Shown here piece after piece: positions 678 to 13,109 of a DNA stretch of 15,014 nt; the first letter of the stretch is position 1; the number at the start of each line of letters is the position of its first letter. Under the pieces are notes generated by a model, which saw only the letters and a program-made list of their open reading frames with translations, searched no databases and was not told the DNA's origin. The stretch lies in the UHGV virus genome UHGV-0136760; one strand, written 5' to 3'. Source of the DNA: a virus. Position numbers and translations under genes: made by a program.

Positions 678-1283
678 TTAAGGTGTCAAATCAAGCGCCA
701 TCTTATAGAGCGTCATTTGGTCGGCATTGTGCCGTATAAAATCACTCTTACCGCCTACCTTTCCATCAGCATGAACGGGTACCAGCCAGGGATACTGTGT
801 CCGGACTTCTGCTGGCGCTGCATGTTGGTGATGCCATTTGCACAAAGGGAGGACATATTTATGTGCATCTGCGACTGTCCTGCCAAAAATGTGATGCAGG
901 GAGATGTGTGGACTATGCTTGCCATGCAACTGGCACGCAATACACGGTAAGGTGGCAATGGCACCCTGTATTCTGCGTTCTTCCGCTGTCAGTGAGCGCC
1001 CTTTTAGTCCGCGTGATGCACGTTTGGTTACTGCCACCTTTTTTACTTCCCCGGCAGAAGCCTTGCTCATAGCTTTCTCTTTTCGGCGTTCCTCTGCCTT
1101 CCTGACTGCTTCAATTTTTTCCTGACGATATTCAGGTGAAGCCAATTTTTCACGTGTGCGCTGATACTGGCGCTGTGCTCTCAAACGCTGTTTTTCCCGT
1201 TGTGATTCTCTCCACTCAGGATCGGACAATTTCTGTAGCGCTTTCTGGCGCTGCTTTTCCCACAGAGACAGTTTTTCTTTCAT
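678..1283 (-). CDS. HNH endonuclease, Ref-like (phage P1 recombination enhancement function family)
   Basis: 201-aa ORF. The N-terminal half is a highly charged K/R/E/Q-rich region; the C-terminal half carries an HNH/zinc-finger signature (CIACQLHGKHSPHISLHHIF ... LPLCKWHHQ). Assignment by motif recognition only. Confidence 0.65.
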   Translation of the reverse strand: MKEKLSLWEKQRQKALQKLSDPEWRESQREKQRLRAQRQYQRTREKLASPEYRQEKIEAVRKAEERRKEKAMSKASAGEVKKVAVTKRASRGLKGRSLTAEERRIQGAIATLPCIACQLHGKHSPHISLHHIFGRTVADAHKYVLPLCKWHHQHAAPAEVRTQYPWLVPVHADGKVGGKSDFIRHNADQMTLYKMALDLTP

Positions 1284-4303: not shown

Positions 4304-4597
4304 ATGAGTCAAGGTAACGGTGACGGAGCTGCAAAGTGCAGAATCTCCACTTGTTTGATTAATGACAGAAAAATAGAACCGTGCGCGGCGCTGGCACAAT
4401 CTCTGGAGCAGGATGCTGAATACACGACGCGAAAAGGTCTGCTGAAATACAAAATCTATAACCATGAATTAATTCATTCACAAGACCTGATCATGCTGCG
4501 GTCTGGTGAATTTTCTAAATCGCCTATTCGAGTTTCATTTTGCCCGTTCTGTGGTGAAAGTCTGAAAACGTGGGAAGCGGAGGCAACCAGTGAATAA
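4304..4597 (+). CDS. hypothetical small Cys-containing protein (97 aa)
   Basis: ORF with cysteine pairs (CRISTC ... CPFCG) suggesting a zinc ribbon. Its 3' end overlaps the start of paralog copy B by 8 nt. Confidence 0.5.
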   Translation: MSQGNGDGAAKCRISTCLINDRKIEPCAALAQSLEQDAEYTTRKGLLKYKIYNHELIHSQDLIMLRSGEFSKSPIRVSFCPFCGESLKTWEAEATSE

Positions 4598-5234
4598 CCG
4601 CTTTTACATGATGTGCTTGCGTGAAACTGTGGGTAATAACGCCTCATTCCATTGCCATAACGGCAATGGTTACAGTTCTGATATCGATCGCGCTCATGTT
4701 TACACGCTGGAAGAAGCCCAAAAAGCCTGGAATTGTGGACGAGATATCGATCAGCCTGTTTGCGCTGATAGCGTGGATGCAATGGCTGTGTGGCACGTTG
4801 ATTGCCAGTACATCCCTACAGAAAGCCTGATTGAGTCAGATTGCACTGCGTATGTGGCCTACAAAAAAGGTAGCTGGAACGGCAACGATGTTTACTGGCT
4901 TCAACACGGTGGATTGCCAACAGATGACTTCAGTAAAGCGACCATCTTTAGCGTCGCCAACAAAAACGAACCAGGAATAGTTTGGTTGCCATTTTCCATT
5001 GCTGATGCAGCAAAGCGTCGGACGTTCAATATCAATAACGTTAACCGCAGAACAATGGTTCAGGGCGCAGGTTTGGTCATGCCTGACTGGTTGAAAGAGC
5101 AGAACAGAAGAAAGAAGTCGCGAAGCGGGAAGGTGCGTTGGAATTGTCCGCATTGCGGAAAAATAACCTGGCAGTACAGCCCATATGATTTTGAAGGCTG
5201 TAGTGATTACAACTGTGAAGGATGGCGAGAATGA
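4590..5234 (+). CDS. hypothetical protein with C-terminal zinc-ribbon, paralog copy B (GTG start)
   Basis: 214-aa ORF, same length and same C-terminal CxxC...CxxC motif as 1846..2490. The central part is identical at the nucleotide level; the ends are diverged. Confidence 0.65.
   Translation: MNNRFYMMCLRETVGNNASFHCHNGNGYSSDIDRAHVYTLEEAQKAWNCGRDIDQPVCADSVDAMAVWHVDCQYIPTESLIESDCTAYVAYKKGSWNGNDVYWLQHGGLPTDDFSKATIFSVANKNEPGIVWLPFSIADAAKRRTFNINNVNRRTMVQGAGLVMPDWLKEQNRRKKSRSGKVRWNCPHCGKITWQYSPYDFEGCSDYNCEGWRE
4749..5017 (+). repeat. 269-bp segment identical to 2005..2273
   Basis: See paired repeat feature; offset between copies is 2744 bp. Confidence 0.75.
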
Positions 5235-7579: not shown

Positions 7580-7853
7580 CCTGCAACTTGCCGTCAAAGG
7601 TGAATACTTCGATGCCATGATTCGCGGAGAGAAAACGGAAGAGTATCGCTTGTGTAATGGCTACTGGAATAAGCGAATCATGTTCCGGGAATATGACCGC
7701 CTGATTATCACAAAGGGATATCCGAAGCGCGACGATTCCAGTCGCAGAATAGACGTCCCGTATAACGGATATGAAATCAAGACAATCACACATCCGCACT
7801 TCGGTGATAAACCGGTAAAGGTGTACGCGATAAAGGTGAATATCAATGGCTAA
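7572..7853 (+). CDS. ASCH/DUF3850-like small protein
   Basis: GTG start with a GGAGG Shine-Dalgarno. N-terminal LAVKGEYFDAMIRGEKTEEYR resembles the ASCH-domain beta-barrel motif. Overlaps its neighbours at both ends. Confidence 0.5.
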   Translation: MANLQLAVKGEYFDAMIRGEKTEEYRLCNGYWNKRIMFREYDRLIITKGYPKRDDSSRRIDVPYNGYEIKTITHPHFGDKPVKVYAIKVNING

Positions 7854-8274
7854 ATTTCAAAGAGCTATTATTTTTCTGGCTATGTTATCAGCCAGTCATT
7901 TATCCCACGCGTCAGTTATTGCCGCTGGAGCGGCGGCAACAGCGGCGGCAACAGCGGCGACCACGGCGGCAGTAAATGCTTCTATCGCCAGCGAGCAAGC
8001 GCGGCGTGCTGCAACCAATGCTTCCGCAAACACCACCACGGTATCAGTCACACAATCAAAACCGAATATAGGCTTTGTTACTTGTGGCAAGCGATATGGT
8101 GAAATGGTTGGCTCTCTTGGTTGCGTAATGTGGCAAGACGACGACCGAACAGAAATTCCGTGGAACTCATGGCCTGGCTACATTCTTGGTAAGAAGCTGC
8201 CCACCAGCTATGAAGTAAATGCTATTTCGTTCGACCAATATAACAGTGTTGCAACGGTCTATTTCTCTTATTAA
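7846..8274 (+). CDS. secreted protein with signal peptide and Ala/Thr-rich low-complexity region
   Basis: N-terminal signal-peptide-like segment MAKFQRAIIFLAMLSASHLSHA, followed by an Ala/Thr-rich tract and a C-terminal domain containing two Cys. Confidence 0.6.
   Translation: MAKFQRAIIFLAMLSASHLSHASVIAAGAAATAAATAATTAAVNASIASEQARRAATNASANTTTVSVTQSKPNIGFVTCGKRYGEMVGSLGCVMWQDDDRTEIPWNSWPGYILGKKLPTSYEVNAISFDQYNSVATVYFSY
7931..7966 (+). repeat. tandem 12-bp repeat (CGGCGGCAACAG x2 plus one degenerate unit) inside a CDS
   Basis: Direct tandem units read in the sequence; they encode the AAATAAATAATT low-complexity tract. Confidence 0.5.
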
Positions 8275-8286
8275 CACGGAGTAATT

Positions 8287-8580
8287 ATGTGGCGCGGTAA
8301 TAATCATGGTGGAAGCCAGATGATACTTACCGAATATCAGCTCGACCACAAAACCAATAAATCACGCTCAGTATATTTGCTTCGGCACAATAGCCGCGTA
8401 AGGAATACCGTGCTGGAGCAAAATCTGACCGTTGAAATGGATAATTCGGGGAACTTCAAGCCAACAATTTCGCTTGATGATTTTCCGCGTGGTTTAAGCG
8501 AAAGAGAAGCCATGCTGAAATTAGCAGAATGGCTTCAGAGGTTAAGTATTGTTATTGAAGATAACTGGAGTCAACCATAA
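8287..8580 (+). CDS. hypothetical protein (97 aa)
   Basis: ATG at 8287 with an ACGGAG Shine-Dalgarno 5 nt upstream. An alternative internal start at 8320 also has a Shine-Dalgarno. Confidence 0.5.
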   Translation: MWRGNNHGGSQMILTEYQLDHKTNKSRSVYLLRHNSRVRNTVLEQNLTVEMDNSGNFKPTISLDDFPRGLSEREAMLKLAEWLQRLSIVIEDNWSQP

Positions 8581-8756
8581 TGAAAAACAGAAAGAAATTT
8601 TGGATTACTTTTTTGTTTGTATGCCTTTGCGGTTTATTTATTTTATTAGCTGGTGGTGTTAAATGGGGTACGGTGGGGTGTGGTTTTTGGAGCGGGGTTA
8701 CTCTTTTCGCAGCCTGGCTTATCGCCAACTTTGAGTCAGGCGGAGGGTATTGGTAA
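8580..8756 (+). CDS. small membrane protein (58 aa, two predicted TM helices)
   Basis: Not in the ORF track (under 60 aa). ATG at 8580 overlaps the upstream stop (TAATG), with a GGAG about 10 nt upstream. Translation MKNRKKFWITFLFVCLCGLFILLAGGVKWGTVGCGFWSGVTLFAAWLIANFESGGGYW. Confidence 0.45.
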   Translation: MKNRKKFWITFLFVCLCGLFILLAGGVKWGTVGCGFWSGVTLFAAWLIANFESGGGYW

Positions 8757-8776
8757 GTGGTCTTATTCCCCACTTC

Positions 8777-8830
8777 ATAACGGATATCACGCTCGTGATA
8801 ACGGATATTCCAATTTTGATAACGGATAAG
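8777..8830 (+). promoter_or_regulatory. three phased direct repeats of (G)ATAACGGATA upstream of the 8836 gene
   Basis: Copies at about 8777, 8797 and 8818, spaced 20-21 bp apart (about two helical turns), in the 79-bp intergenic gap. Confidence 0.45.
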
Positions 8831-8835
8831 GCCAA

Positions 8836-9045
8836 ATGAAGCATTTTTTAAGGTTGGCATTTGTTCTGGCGCTATTTGATCCTCCGGCTGCAATGGCTGG
8901 AGAACAGCAACATTGCACAAAAGAGAATGAACACCCTTTCATCGTTATTCAATGTGATGACGGAACGGTGACAGTGGTTAATGTAAGAAATGACCGTGTA
9001 GCCGTATGCCGTAAAGGCGAACCATGCAAGGAAATAAAACTATGA
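8836..9045 (+). CDS. small secreted Cys-containing protein (69 aa) with signal peptide
   Basis: N-terminal signal-peptide-like MKHFLRLAFVLALFDPPAAMA, then a mature part with four Cys. Confidence 0.55.
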   Translation: MKHFLRLAFVLALFDPPAAMAGEQQHCTKENEHPFIVIQCDDGTVTVVNVRNDRVAVCRKGEPCKEIKL

Positions 9046-9806
9046 CTAAAATCACTAAATTTCGCATATCAGAGATTATTGCACGCATCGAAATGTATGG
9101 ACACGGCGCTGGATACACGGCAGATGAGGTATTGGAGCTTGCCCAAATGGCTTTGGCGACTTGCAAAGATGGTAAAACAATGAAGCTGATCGACTTGTTA
9201 GTGAAGGAGTTGCCTAAGCGCGGCGGATGGCCTTATGGTATGATCGATTGTCGCCTGCTCAGTGCCAATTTAATGGTGCCATGCGCGACTTTTGCTTTTG
9301 GCTCAGACTGCAAAAAAGACCAGTTCGATGGGCGCAATTTTTGTTTTGAGATTGAGCTTCCAATTCATGACCTTGATAGCGATGAATACCAGTCAGTTGT
9401 CACTCACGAACAATACGAAGCCGCTCTCATAGCGTCGCAGCAAGTCGAGTTCAATGGTGATGAACTTGAAAGTAAGGCTTACAAGTTAGATTTTGAGCAA
9501 TGGCTGGAGCAGCAGCGCGGGAAAATCGATGTGGACTGCGGTTGTGTGTCTGCGGAAACATTCATGCACTGGTTGCGGGTAGCTTATGAGGCTGGCAACC
9601 ATCCGGATTTTCCGGATAGTTCCCAACAAGCGCCCAGGAAAAGCGTAAAAACCACTCTGGAAAGAGGCTATCTTGAGGCCGCATTAAAGATTAAGCCGGG
9701 CCATACGCTAGGCGTCATTGATGCCATGTTGGTTCATGAAATGGCGAAGGCTTTATTGCCGCTGGTGGCTGATAAACATGAGGCGGACCATGCCAACGAA
9801 AGCTGA
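9042..9806 (+). CDS. hypothetical protein (254 aa)
   Basis: Start taken at the ATG at 9042 (MTKITKF...), which has an AAGGAAAT Shine-Dalgarno and overlaps the upstream stop. No recognised domain. Confidence 0.55.
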   Translation: MTKITKFRISEIIARIEMYGHGAGYTADEVLELAQMALATCKDGKTMKLIDLLVKELPKRGGWPYGMIDCRLLSANLMVPCATFAFGSDCKKDQFDGRNFCFEIELPIHDLDSDEYQSVVTHEQYEAALIASQQVEFNGDELESKAYKLDFEQWLEQQRGKIDVDCGCVSAETFMHWLRVAYEAGNHPDFPDSSQQAPRKSVKTTLERGYLEAALKIKPGHTLGVIDAMLVHEMAKALLPLVADKHEADHANES

Positions 9807-10074
9807 GTTACAGGCGCGCGTAGAGATTCTTGAAAAAGAGAATGCCAGCCTCAAAGGAATGCTGGCGCGGGCGGAAAGGGAATTATCAGGTAAATTATTG
9901 CCAGAGGAGCGACCACCAGCAGATATACCCGACCGAGTGTCCCGGTGGATGAAGTCTTTTTGTTTGTCGTGGGAGACTTTTTGGTGCTACGACCATCGCA
10001 GATGGTGCGATGAACTTGATAGCAGCTTTCCCTACTTTGCGGAAGGTAACACCTGCCCTCAATGCAGGGGATGA
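9790..10074 (+). CDS. coiled-coil protein with C-terminal Cys-rich (zinc-finger-like) tail (94 aa)
   Basis: ATG at 9790 within track ORF 9718..10074. N-terminal heptad-like segment ELQARVEILEKENASLKGMLARAERE; C-terminal CxxxxW...C...CPQC. Confidence 0.45.
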   Translation: MPTKAELQARVEILEKENASLKGMLARAERELSGKLLPEERPPADIPDRVSRWMKSFCLSWETFWCYDHRRWCDELDSSFPYFAEGNTCPQCRG

Positions 10075-10415
10075 GATTTAACGAAATCGATCACCCTATC
10101 CTGAACTTCAGAAAGAAGGTCTTTTTCACAAGCCAGGACGTCATGATATTGACGTTCTGGCCTCACCAGATGCCGAAGCCTCCCATTAAGCAGGATGGCC
10201 TCAGAAAACACTTTTACGCTGTGCTTTACCCCCTCTGCTTCACTTTTAAGCGTCAAAATAAAGCGCAATTGCTTAATTGCATTGGCATGATTCAGGTTCA
10301 ATACACGAATTTGCAGTTCGTCTATGCTATTTCGCAATGGGATTGATGCCACCACACTGGTGCAGTCTCTGATTGTCTGAATTGAACGGCTAACATTGAG
10401 AACGTTATTGTGCAT
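10059..10415 (-). CDS. hypothetical protein (118 aa), antisense to the main operon
   Basis: Long minus-strand ORF with plausible protein-like composition, divergent from the 10448 gene. Weak ribosome-binding site. Competes with plus-strand ORF 10062..10346. Confidence 0.35.
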   Translation of the reverse strand: MHNNVLNVSRSIQTIRDCTSVVASIPLRNSIDELQIRVLNLNHANAIKQLRFILTLKSEAEGVKHSVKVFSEAILLNGRLRHLVRPERQYHDVLACEKDLLSEVQDRVIDFVKSHPLH

Positions 10416-11257: not shown

Positions 11258-12352
11258 TCATTCAATGATTTTTTCGGCTGTCAGCCAGCTAATTTCGTGC
11301 CTGTCTTTCGGCGGTTTTAGCATGTGAGCATATTCAGCGACATGCTCCCACGGAATTGTTTTTGCCCACTCAACGATAGCATTGTGATCTGCAGTGAAGA
11401 GTGGAATAGTGTGCGATTTCAACCATTCTAATGTCGTGACGCCATGTTTTTTGGCGTGGTGCTGCGCATGATGCCGGGCTATCACTCGTAATGGCATTGT
11501 CCATTCACTACCATCAGGCATCGAAAAGCGCATTGTCTTCGGCATATCTGATTCAAGAACAGCCTCCCTAATACCAGGGAACTCACCAAGAATCATACGA
11601 CGATAGTCATCACTATTTCGCCCGCCATACCTTTCGGCAAAATGATCAAGATATTCTTGGGTAATAAATGGTGAATCCTCCGCACTCAGCTTAATGGCTT
11701 TATATACACCACTCGGATTATCTTCAGCTAAAGCACGTCCATGATGTGAATCATAAAAAAAGCCTATTTCCTCTGGTGACGGAATTGAAGTGAGCAATAT
11801 GCGTGAATCACCACTAGTCATGCTTGCCCACACAATGCTGTATGCCCGATCGCTGATATGTGCGGAATCCACAATAATGAATAAAAGATGGTCGGCGTAG
11901 TGACCTGCAATGCTATCTTCATAGTTAAGGCGGTAGTTACAAAAGCACATTCCCCAAAATTCATTGAACATCAGACCGCTATCACCGACCTTAAAATACT
12001 CAATGATAAAAGGTTGTTTTTTCAGCAATGCCTCCCAACATTGCCACACATATGCAACAATTCCTCTTTTGCAAACATTTGATTTTGGATAAACAATTAC
12101 TGTCCGGGAATCAGGATACATAATCGTATAAAGGGTACTAATAACAGCAAGCACTTGCGGTCGTCCGATCCCATACGGAGTGGTGACAGTAGCTTTTGCA
12201 TTATTGGGCTGTATAGCTTCAACAATTTGTTGTTGCTGGTGGCTTAAATCAATATCAAACAATTCTTTTGCTGCCAGTACCCAATTGTCTTTATATTTCT
12301 CCACCAGCGACAGCCAGCGCGGATCTTTATAAATATTGCTCTTAGTCGCCAT
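11258..12352 (-). CDS. terminase large subunit-like ATPase-domain protein (no nuclease domain)
   Basis: Start taken at the internal ATG at 12352 (MATKSNIYK...), which has an AAGGAAG Shine-Dalgarno and overlaps the upstream stop. Terminase-like motif order: P-loop-like GIGRPQ, Walker B-like LLFIIVDSAH, motif III-like LLTSIPSPEE, then YRRMILGEF. Only 364 aa. Confidence 0.5.
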   Translation of the reverse strand: MATKSNIYKDPRWLSLVEKYKDNWVLAAKELFDIDLSHQQQQIVEAIQPNNAKATVTTPYGIGRPQVLAVISTLYTIMYPDSRTVIVYPKSNVCKRGIVAYVWQCWEALLKKQPFIIEYFKVGDSGLMFNEFWGMCFCNYRLNYEDSIAGHYADHLLFIIVDSAHISDRAYSIVWASMTSGDSRILLTSIPSPEEIGFFYDSHHGRALAEDNPSGVYKAIKLSAEDSPFITQEYLDHFAERYGGRNSDDYRRMILGEFPGIREAVLESDMPKTMRFSMPDGSEWTMPLRVIARHHAQHHAKKHGVTTLEWLKSHTIPLFTADHNAIVEWAKTIPWEHVAEYAHMLKPPKDRHEISWLTAEKIIE

Positions 12353-13109
12353 CTGCCACTTCCTTAACTTCTTCTTTGGCCTGTTCTGCAATCGCCGCAC
12401 GGCATTTCGCCCTGGCTGTAGCGATTGCTTCAGCTCGCACATCGTCTGGAATCGTTGACGTGATATACATATCCAGTTCTTCGGCACGGAATACTGTTTG
12501 GTCCAGATATTCGCGTAGCATCCAGGTAAATTCGAAATCACACGCGATAATCTCTGCGCTACCTTCTGCACCATTTGGGAAATGAATAAATGCCTGTTTA
12601 GCCAAACCGATAACACGACATGCGGTTGCCAAAACAGCGACAACCAGGTTTACATTTTCACACGCTACGGGCTGATTAACGCCGGAGATTACTCCATTTA
12701 ACTGTCGGTTATATGGAAGGTAGTTTGAGATGCGTTCTACGCGCCATGTGCCAGTCAGGCTGCCATTTTTAAAGATAATTGGTGTAACGGATAGCCCAAG
12801 CTCGCGTATAAGTCGTTGCGCTATAGCAGGATCATTAAACAGGTCTAATGCTACACATTCGAAAGACTGCGCAAGGGCAAACAGTTCTTCCAGAGAGTAG
12901 TCTTTGCCCCTGGCGGTGATGTAACGACGAACGCCGCTGTCTGCATCACTCCATATAGCTACGCCATGCTCTTCATTCAGCTCTTCATTAAAGCCGAGAT
13001 ACGTCATGATAGTGCGTTCAATCGTGTCAAACGGCAGTGACATGTCGGCGTTAACAGCCACCAGCAGGCCATTACGCAAGCGGTATTGAATTGTTTTAGT
13101 GCTTTCCAT
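12342..13109 (-). CDS. hypothetical protein (255 aa)
   Basis: ORF with a GGAG Shine-Dalgarno. Acidic Ala-rich C-terminal tail. No recognised domain. Confidence 0.55.
   Translation of the reverse strand: MESTKTIQYRLRNGLLVAVNADMSLPFDTIERTIMTYLGFNEELNEEHGVAIWSDADSGVRRYITARGKDYSLEELFALAQSFECVALDLFNDPAIAQRLIRELGLSVTPIIFKNGSLTGTWRVERISNYLPYNRQLNGVISGVNQPVACENVNLVVAVLATACRVIGLAKQAFIHFPNGAEGSAEIIACDFEFTWMLREYLDQTVFRAEELDMYITSTIPDDVRAEAIATARAKCRAAIAEQAKEEVKEVADGD

Follow-up and report, generated by a model that had tools for sequence, protein, structure and literature searches.

Three copies of a short direct repeat occupy the gap in front of a small secreted-protein gene in the 15,014-nucleotide stretch of viral DNA analysed here (the window), and the question is whether they are binding sites and, if so, of what kind. 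The first-pass annotation had described them as three helically phased copies 20-21 bp apart, immediately upstream of the gene that starts at 8836, and had read them as iteron-like sites for an activator, repressor or initiator protein. The features concerned, all on the plus strand, are these:

8580 to 8756, plus strand: upstream gene for a 58-aa small membrane protein, annotated in RefSeq relatives
8735 to 8839, plus strand: open frame that reads the repeats as ITD, with the translation VRRRVLVSGLIPHF ITDITLV ITDIPIL ITDKAK*
8757 to 8835, plus strand: intercistronic gap of 79 nt with the array; its RNA is unstructured
8774 to 8794, plus strand: repeat unit 1, the core TTC-ATAACGGATA (8774-8786) and the 8-nt spacer TCACGCTC
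8795 to 8815, plus strand: repeat unit 2, the core GTG-ATAACGGATA (8795-8807) and the 8-nt spacer TTCCAATT
8816 to 8835, plus strand: repeat unit 3, the core TTG-ATAACGGATA (8816-8828) and AGGCCAA
8836 to 9045, plus strand: downstream gene for a 69-aa secreted protein with four Cys and a 'type B' signal peptide (phrog_20764)
7762 to 7771, plus strand: isolated fourth exact copy of ATAACGGATA, inside an ASCH-domain ORF and read there as YNGY

The 10-mer ATAACGGATA was found three times without mismatch, at 8777-8786, 8798-8807 and 8819-8828. The three phased copies of the first-pass annotation were thereby confirmed as exact, and their start-to-start spacing is corrected from 20-21 bp to 21 and 21 bp. 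An 11-mer, GATAACGGATA, holds for copies 2 and 3 only, as copy 1 reads CATAACGGATA. The conserved unit consists of TTC, GTG or TTG followed by ATAACGGATA (13 nt), after which come 8 variable nt that are mutually unrelated. When up to one mismatch was allowed, ATAACGGATA had 5 matches in the window against 0.68 expected, a count that 0 of 200 shuffles reached. The fourth exact copy, at 7762, reads ATGACGGATA in the relative plasmid pTB423 and, not being conserved there, was judged a chance match outside the feature. The spacers are too diverged for TRF to detect the array. Each of the 34 copies of the window array type has three units that start 21 and 21 bp apart, so the near-identical units and copy-number variation that mark a variable-number tandem repeat are both lacking. 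Across the junction of units 1 and 2 (8785-8800) runs a perfect 7+2+7 palindrome, TATCACGCTCGTGATA, which resembles a lambda-type operator half-site pair; it is lost in a Salmonella IncY P1-like plasmid (L002) and is therefore probably incidental. The placement in an intergenic gap just upstream of the 8836 gene was borne out by the RefSeq annotation of a 97%-identical plasmid, where one CDS corresponds to 8580-8756, the next to 8836-9045, and none lies between them.

By our analysis the window belongs to a P1/D6-like phage-plasmid. With 1 kb around the array as the query, about 20 E. coli plasmids, each of roughly 90 kb, matched at 95-97% identity, and about 290 further plasmids together with P1, RCS47 and SJ46 matched in part. 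The equivalent region of RCS47 sits between the pap/pmg genes and hot-humD, and the array locus is the equivalent of the P1 pmg-hot region. The genes around the array are packed as one operon, in which the stop of the 69-aa gene overlaps the start of the next ORF (9042-9806). A 214-aa ORF whose C terminus has a Cys-rich motif is present twice (1846-2490 and 4590-5234); the two lie 2.7 kb apart in one operon and have 93% protein identity. The 97-aa ORFs preceding them are unrelated, one being DUF4406/nucleoside 2-deoxyribosyltransferase-like (1556-1849) and the other phrog_4030 (4304-4597). A 12-bp tandem repeat, AGCGGCGGCAAC x3.5, was seen at 7929-7970 inside the signal-peptide ORF 7846-8274, where it encodes an Ala/Thr-rich low-complexity stretch. 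The first gene in the window is a Ref-like RecA-dependent nuclease gene (678-1283, minus strand). Another minus-strand ORF (11258-12643, about 365 codons from an internal ATG) may be terminase-large-subunit-like, judged from its translation. It follows humD, at the position where P1, RCS47 and L002 carry phd-doc; the addiction module is therefore absent there in this plasmid type. In pTB423 four tRNA genes were noted (L135 42844-44038), with the anticodons UCU, UGU, UGA and CAU (CAU annotated as Ile). They are readers of rare codons including AUA, which is the Ile codon of the coding repeat cores.

The array is missing from most homologous loci, namely L003, L357-L366, the IncI2 homologs and the P1 relative RCS47. 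In L366 the membrane ORF and the 69-aa gene lie 8 nt apart with no array between them, and L003 and L357-L365 have neither the array nor the body of the membrane ORF. All of L003 and L357-L366 carry the other, type-A signal-peptide allele of the 69-aa gene. The membrane ORF has protein-level variants in L027 and L366, and in L002 a different gene stands in its place. Two signal-peptide alleles of the 69-aa protein circulate among P1/D6-like plasmids, and homologs of about 77% nucleotide identity occur in many IncI2 conjugative plasmids (L004 3003-3218), where they sit just upstream of type IV secretion genes. The array came with the 'type B' allele, in a replacement that begins just past the upstream stop codon, and is dispensable for having the 69-aa gene. 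Absence from homologous loci, one of the two signs that the first-pass annotation had together set against its reading, is thus found at most of them, but the array is kept in the diverged ortholog L002.

The proposal that the repeats are an operator or iteron-like array, through which an activator, repressor or initiator would control transcription of the 8836 gene or replication, has the architecture in its favour. Three direct repeats 21 bp (two helical turns) apart stand directly upstream of a gene, with conserved cores and free spacers, an arrangement that presumably resembles iterons and Xis- or AraC-type direct-repeat sites. However, the true iterons of the relative plasmid are different. 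In pTB423 (91.7 kb, 97% identical, searched whole), nine iterons of the sequence TTGAGGGCAAATCTTACACC surround repB, and the parM-proximal repeats read TGAGAACAATTTGAGAA, both unlike ATAACGGATA. On the pTB423 record, repB and its iterons occupy 600-1800 and the array 57381-57432; these iterons and the centromere-like repeats are 35-55 kb off. At least three phased direct repeats are therefore the only mark of iterons that the array bears, as it neither adjoins an origin or initiator nor shares an iteron sequence. The likeness of the reverse complement to a DnaA box had been described as loose and short of a match, and so it proved: against the 9-mer TTATNCACA, unit 3 (TTATCCGTT) has 3 mismatches and units 1 and 2 (ATATCCGTT) have 4. 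No DnaA box with up to one mismatch was found in 8277-10121, the window-wide count (19 against 14.8 expected) is that of chance, and the gap contains no AT-rich stretch (GC 39-44%).

A role at a promoter of the 8836 gene found no more support. The scan of 8200-9400 gave no sigma-70 promoter or terminator on the plus strand of the gap, activator-dependent promoters and P1 Lpa-type late promoters being outside its scope. Further copies, as a regulon would have them, were not above chance in pTB423, where the exact ATAACGGATA occurs only at the array and matches with up to one mismatch number 5 against 5.85 expected. Pfam and PHROGs searches of the window ORFs revealed no DNA-binding candidate. 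Sites for IHF, Fis, the lambda operator, lacO and MalT were compared by eye and rejected, and likewise those for RcsAB, AraC/XylS and Fur, loxP and the P1 pac hexamers; each gave a coincidence of 5-7 nt at most or a match in a single lineage. In addition, the same module is found inside ORFs elsewhere. We consider control of transcription or replication through an operator or iteron very unlikely. What stands of the binding-site reading is that the cores are kept while the spacers drift.

This contrast was measured against L002, the only deeply diverged ortholog with the array, which again has three units at 21/21. Since its upstream gene differs, homology between the window and L002 begins exactly at unit 1. 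The cores of the two differ at 1 of 39 sites and the spacers at 10 of 23 (Fisher p=9e-5). In the adjacent CDS, 17.6% of all sites and 27% of third positions differ, and the probability of at most one change in 39 sites is 0.005 at the CDS rate and 7e-5 at the third-position rate. The lone core change is in unit 2 (GAT to GAC) and is synonymous in the ITD frame, and the core of unit 1 is the same in L002 and in all 34 close copies. These 34 copies have four polymorphic sites (8788 and 8791 in the spacer of unit 1, 8811 in that of unit 2, and 8830), all of them outside the cores (P=0.016). Just downstream of the unit 3 core, AAGG is not conserved, being AATG in L002 and AAAG in L043. The GGA of unit 3 (8824-8826), 9 nt before ATG 8836, is the only purine-rich or SD-like element kept in all variants. 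Judged from these substitution patterns, the 13-nt cores are under purifying selection and the spacers drift.

Selection on a peptide would be one source of such a pattern, as the ITD frame is open through all three units and its TGA overlaps ATG 8836 (ATGA). This frame, however, has no conserved start: TTG 8750 is TTA in L027 and L355, and L002 has TAG three codons before unit 1. Core conservation persists without a conserved start codon for translating all three units. A protein search with the ITD-frame translation gave a single match, a 58-aa ORF called in one public record (P0001, equal to window 8663-8839) that runs through all three repeats in this frame. The call was made because that assembly has a sense codon in place of the TGA of window 8732; it overlaps the membrane ORF out of frame and is probably spurious. 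We also considered programmed frameshifting, by which ribosomes would pass out of the upstream ORF to reach the ITD frame, and rejected it, since there is no slippery site and since in L002 the upstream gene is a different one, in the same frame, with two stops between. The array is untranslated in the window, where the annotated ORFs flank the ITD frame.

When IMG/VR and metagenomes were scanned for the pattern, other Enterobacterales phages proved to have this core and period as well. The first-pass annotation, in treating the array as an intergenic binding site, had overlooked that ORFs of other phages read such repeats as in-frame ITD heptads, in the frame that is still open here. Each unit of the module has a core T-S-ATAACGGATA of 12-13 nt and then some 8 nt that vary; an array contains 2-4 such units, repeated every 21 bp. 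A consensus was drawn from 20 arrays with 56 units in all, and the units of the window agree with it. The window array shares with the module its place in an accessory region and at a homology breakpoint, but not translation in the ITD frame. About half of the arrays are in-frame inside ORFs; the others are out of frame, antisense or intergenic, and several stand at mosaic joints.

The in-frame arrays belong to at least six unrelated ORF families, in which the heptads (V/L/M/F)-I-T-D-(S/N/K..)-x-x form interdomain linkers or C-terminal tails. One family reads ...ALEIALPVLEQQE[MITDSQPVITDSAEMITDSES]GDGWIEWGGG..., with the array after LEQQE. Ten of ten relatives (L138-L147), fetched by the domain downstream of the array alone, read LEQQE-R/KE-GDGW and have no array, so that the array acts like an insertion made cleanly and in frame. 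A second family reads ...AMLGQP[IITDNVDLITDK]QPEP..., and here L149 departs from L148, L150 and L151 exactly after the second core. In L046, an 87-aa ORF in the same slot upstream of hot ends ...PV ITDSGNL ITDSGEM ITDNKEDKC* and overlaps the start of a small signal-peptide ORF, which makes it a coding analogue of the window layout.

In L008/L016, L052, L368 and L021 the arrays are frame-broken or non-coding; their cores are intact, although the spacing is 19, 20 or 22 bp. Two lambdoid prophage types each have a frame-broken ATAACGGATA array (L368 3363-3420 and L016 7188-7220) in the 'moron' slot between Q and holin, and these two arrays point opposite ways, in keeping with decaying relics. Orientation is mostly sense to the local genes, about 9-10 arrays against 2. 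An antisense array was observed at the 3' end of a PacA-like small-terminase gene in the Pantoea sp. plasmid CP009882 (L074 4124-4200). The Pantoea antisense arrays (L074, L047, L091, L121 and L131) have 2-4 ATAACGGAT units with a 21-bp period, their number varying from one relative to another, and the PacA-like gene reads the units as ESVMSDD heptads.

Codon usage within the cores was examined in the table of 56 units. The Thr codon is ACG in 54 of them; the exceptions, GCG (first base, L017) and ATG (second base, L005), are non-synonymous, and the third base never varies. The ATA codon is replaced by ATC in six units and by ATG once, in the antisense Pantoea array. GAT shows one synonymous change (GAC, L002) and one non-synonymous change (AAT, L057). 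GAT is followed by A in 51 of 56 units, although the next codon varies in meaning (S, N, K, I, T or M), and wherever that codon is Ser it is AGY, never TCN. Spacer positions reach a consensus of only 34-66%. When one of two phased units was relaxed to synonymous I-T-D codons, about 5 loci were added to about 25. Among ITD tripeptides sampled without bias from related phage DNA, the share of ATAACGGAT was 9 of 30, against 3% expected. Codon usage argues for a nucleotide-level constraint on the cores, in a family that is small (about 13-15 independent arrays), that is subject to ascertainment bias because the searches asked for intact cores and non-coding members are detectable only with them, and in which synonymous changes are somewhat commoner among the few variant cores than would be expected under neutrality.

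Other searches added little to the family. Pfam gave nothing on the array-bearing proteins. The F2 and L008 array regions had no match in 5,426 E. coli complete genomes, and the F1 array region had one short partial match in the phage collection, in a Pantoea phage. The satellite-excluding metagenome scan returned many window-type copies and only about 3 new array types. The degenerate I-T-D x3 scan, which served as a synonymous-codon control, returned mostly perfect tandem repeats and 7-mer satellites. A scan for ATAACGGAYA-N9-13-ATAACGGAYA in genomes of 185k species had no enteric loci among the matches listed. Those listed (L228-L347) were mostly (GGATAAC)n heptanucleotide microsatellites of unrelated phyla; such repeats, often near gene starts, occur in Bacteroidota, Chloroflexota, Cloacimonadota, Shewanella and others and, unrelated to the array, are strikingly common. 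Literature searches with the motif in either orientation found primers and unrelated matches only, and no description of the motif. Those on D6 and P1-like plasmid prophages, lambdoid boundary sequences, Q-binding elements, and CsrA with ACGGAU found nothing relevant.

We conclude with high confidence that the window repeats are a non-coding member of this module at a mosaic joint, and that the readings as iterons, as DnaA boxes and as a sigma-70 operator are wrong. As to what the cores do, neither neutrality nor translation explains why all three are kept in two lineages, and with cores selected and spacers not, recognition sites become the most likely reading of them; on this sequence evidence we regard them with moderate confidence as candidate recognition sites. 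The fuller explanation that we tentatively prefer, while rating its chance somewhat short of even, is that the cores are putative recognition sites of a sequence-specific nucleic-acid-binding factor, in an untranslated copy of a portable module. The module circulates in accessory ('moron' or early) regions among the temperate phages and phage-plasmids of Enterobacterales, and its copy in the window takes up the entire gap, where it forms the 5' joint of a 69-aa allele that was imported. We infer both the binding of a factor and a local effect on expression of the downstream cassette. Because unit 3 holds the only conserved SD-like GGA, that effect would probably be on translation or expression of the 69-aa cassette.

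The target of such a factor could be DNA, with three sites on one helical face, or RNA, with three single-stranded leader sites of which the last would mask the ribosome-binding site. A DNA target is favoured by a core as long as 12-13 nt, by a spacing of two helical turns and by the antisense arrays. An RNA target is favoured by the missing promoter, the preponderance of sense arrays, the lack of structure in the leader and the overlap with the ribosome-binding site. The sense bias fits a constraint at the RNA or protein level better than it fits DNA binding. Against recognition sites of either kind, the 91.7-kb relative plasmid has a single cluster, many relatives have no array at all, the window ORFs include no recognisable DNA-binding protein, and the lone core change in L002 is silent in the ITD frame. 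Arrays of binding sites inside six ORF families would also be unusual, and an origin as h-ITD heptads (h for a hydrophobic residue) at the protein level would be simpler there.

That origin is the starting point of the main rival, according to which the array is an inert relic, the leftover 3' end of an ORF with an h-ITD tail that was cut by recombination of the type-B allele and now serves only as a spacer with a weak ribosome-binding site, its cores being recognised by nothing. Much of the layout agrees with it. The ITD frame is still open, with its TGA overlapping ATG 8836 as in a packed operon, and L046 shows an intact coding analogue in the same genomic slot. The arrays of L052, L368 and L008 are clearly truncated or frame-shifted gene ends, arrays coincide with mosaic joints (the left edge in the window and L002, the right edge in L148 versus L149), and many relatives do without an array with no visible consequence. 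But neutral cores should diverge as the spacers do, whereas the changes from L002 number 1/39 against 10/23 and the polymorphisms 0 against 4. Independent truncation at one and the same nucleotide (CTTC|ATAACGG) in both lineages is unlikely, and so is gene conversion from other arrays in E. coli, where the F2 and L008 types are unmatched. The relic accounts well for the origin of the array and not for its conservation, and on balance we rate it as rather unlikely.

Two alternatives that give the array a function at the level of translation are specific but weaker. A CsrA dimer bridges a pair of GGA sites that lie 10-63 nt from each other, one of them typically covering the SD, and characterised Rsm/Csr targets include ACGGAU. 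The host CsrA or a similar protein might bind three single-stranded A-C-GGA-U motifs and repress translation of the 69-aa protein. Each core does contain a GGA (8782, 8803 and 8824); these are spaced by 21 nt and the last precedes the ATG by 9 nt, so that the leader has at least two GGA 10-63 nt apart with one overlapping the SD. The gap has no promoter, the arrays are mostly sense, and in RNA folds the leader was unstructured, with nothing stable or conserved (z = 0.16 in the window, 1.39 in L002). No Rfam family was found in the gap. However, the 12-13 conserved nt go far beyond what CsrA needs, the SELEX consensus RUACARGGAUGU is matched at 7/12 only, and the GGAs lie outside hairpin loops. 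The same arrays also occur deep inside ORFs and, in two families, antisense, and support from the literature was not found; control of the CsrA type is therefore, in our estimate, unlikely.

The other alternative supposes translated mini-ORFs with starts at TTG 8750, GTG 8795 and TTG 8816, which would yield a short ITD peptide and, by re-initiation at ATG 8836, couple expression of the 69-aa protein to it. The NTG starts each follow a GGA by about 10 nt and the frame is open. The ATGA overlap is kept in the window type and in L002, which also keeps the GTG and TTG before units 2 and 3. That the lone core substitution is synonymous, and that the one public gene call uses the ITD frame, likewise agree with it. 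Yet no start is conserved upstream of unit 1, where L027 has TTA and L002 has TAG and then CAA TGC TTC, so that selection on a peptide cannot explain the conservation of the unit 1 core. The A after the ATG is also present in an array-less IncI2 homolog, which makes the ATGA overlap incidental. We give mini-ORFs hardly any weight. Recognition sites for a binding factor are thus retained as the preferred, if tentative, explanation.

A neat 'iteron-like' triple repeat in the operon of a phage-plasmid has turned out to be neither origin nor operator, and intergenic repeats in mosaic phage regions should be compared with coding repeats elsewhere before they receive a regulatory label. If the cores are bound, they would represent a rare case of a short cis element that stays intact both between genes and inside the linkers of unrelated proteins. 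They would then offer a handle on the exchange and control of accessory cassettes in P1-like plasmids and lambdoid phages, cassettes that also spread resistance and virulence genes.

With plasmid iterons (the P1 incC/incA RepA sites and the RepB-type iterons of pTB423) the array has in common a conserved core, a period of about 21-22 bp and the use of one helix face. Unlike them, it has no adjoining rep gene, DnaA boxes or AT-rich region, consists of three copies at one site, also occurs inside ORFs of non-plasmid phages, and has a sequence unlike TTGAGGGCAAATCTTACACC. It also seems to resemble the sites of small winged-helix proteins (the Xis sites X1/X2 of lambda and the P2 Cox boxes) and those of AraC/XylS-type activators, whose half-sites are spaced by 21 bp; these too would be asymmetric direct repeats of 12-13 bp spaced about 20-21 bp. 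It differs from these in having no att site, promoter or cognate gene nearby, and its sequence is, to our knowledge, unlike any Xis, Cox or AraC/XylS-type site.

Like the CsrA/RsmA leaders of the glgC, pgaA and cstA type, the array has, in an untranslated leader, several A-N-GGA motifs tens of nt apart, the last at the ribosome-binding site; unlike them, it has 12-13 conserved nt, no hairpin presentation, and copies within ORFs and antisense. Lambdoid phages carry short conserved linker or boundary sequences at module junctions. The array too sits where homology starts or stops (in the window and L002, in L148/L149 and in the LEQQE...GDGW family), but it is periodic, with a 13-nt core and often within ORFs, and its cores are too short for efficient homologous exchange. 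With heptad linkers of 21-bp minisatellites it shares a period of 7 codons and in-frame insertion into linkers and tails. It differs from them in that its spacers have diverged almost fully beside cores invariant even at synonymous sites, in the constant unit number of the 34 copies, and in going undetected by TRF.

A bolder proposal is offered as a speculation that is rather unlikely to hold in full. The ATAACGGATA arrays would be a novel class of dual-use cis elements in Enterobacterales temperate phages, namely candidate sites for one factor, phased at 21 bp and kept at the nucleotide level. They would mark where accessory ('moron') cassettes are exchanged or expressed and might even promote or regulate these events, and the array of the window would be functional, though non-coding, and not debris. 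Phages would accept such arrays within genes since a 21-bp unit is exactly 7 codons long and the core can be read through in one frame (I-T-D). Short phased repeats are familiar at mosaic joints, and so are repeats that encode heptads; what is unusual is their apparent dual use, coding and non-coding, with conservation at the nucleotide level.
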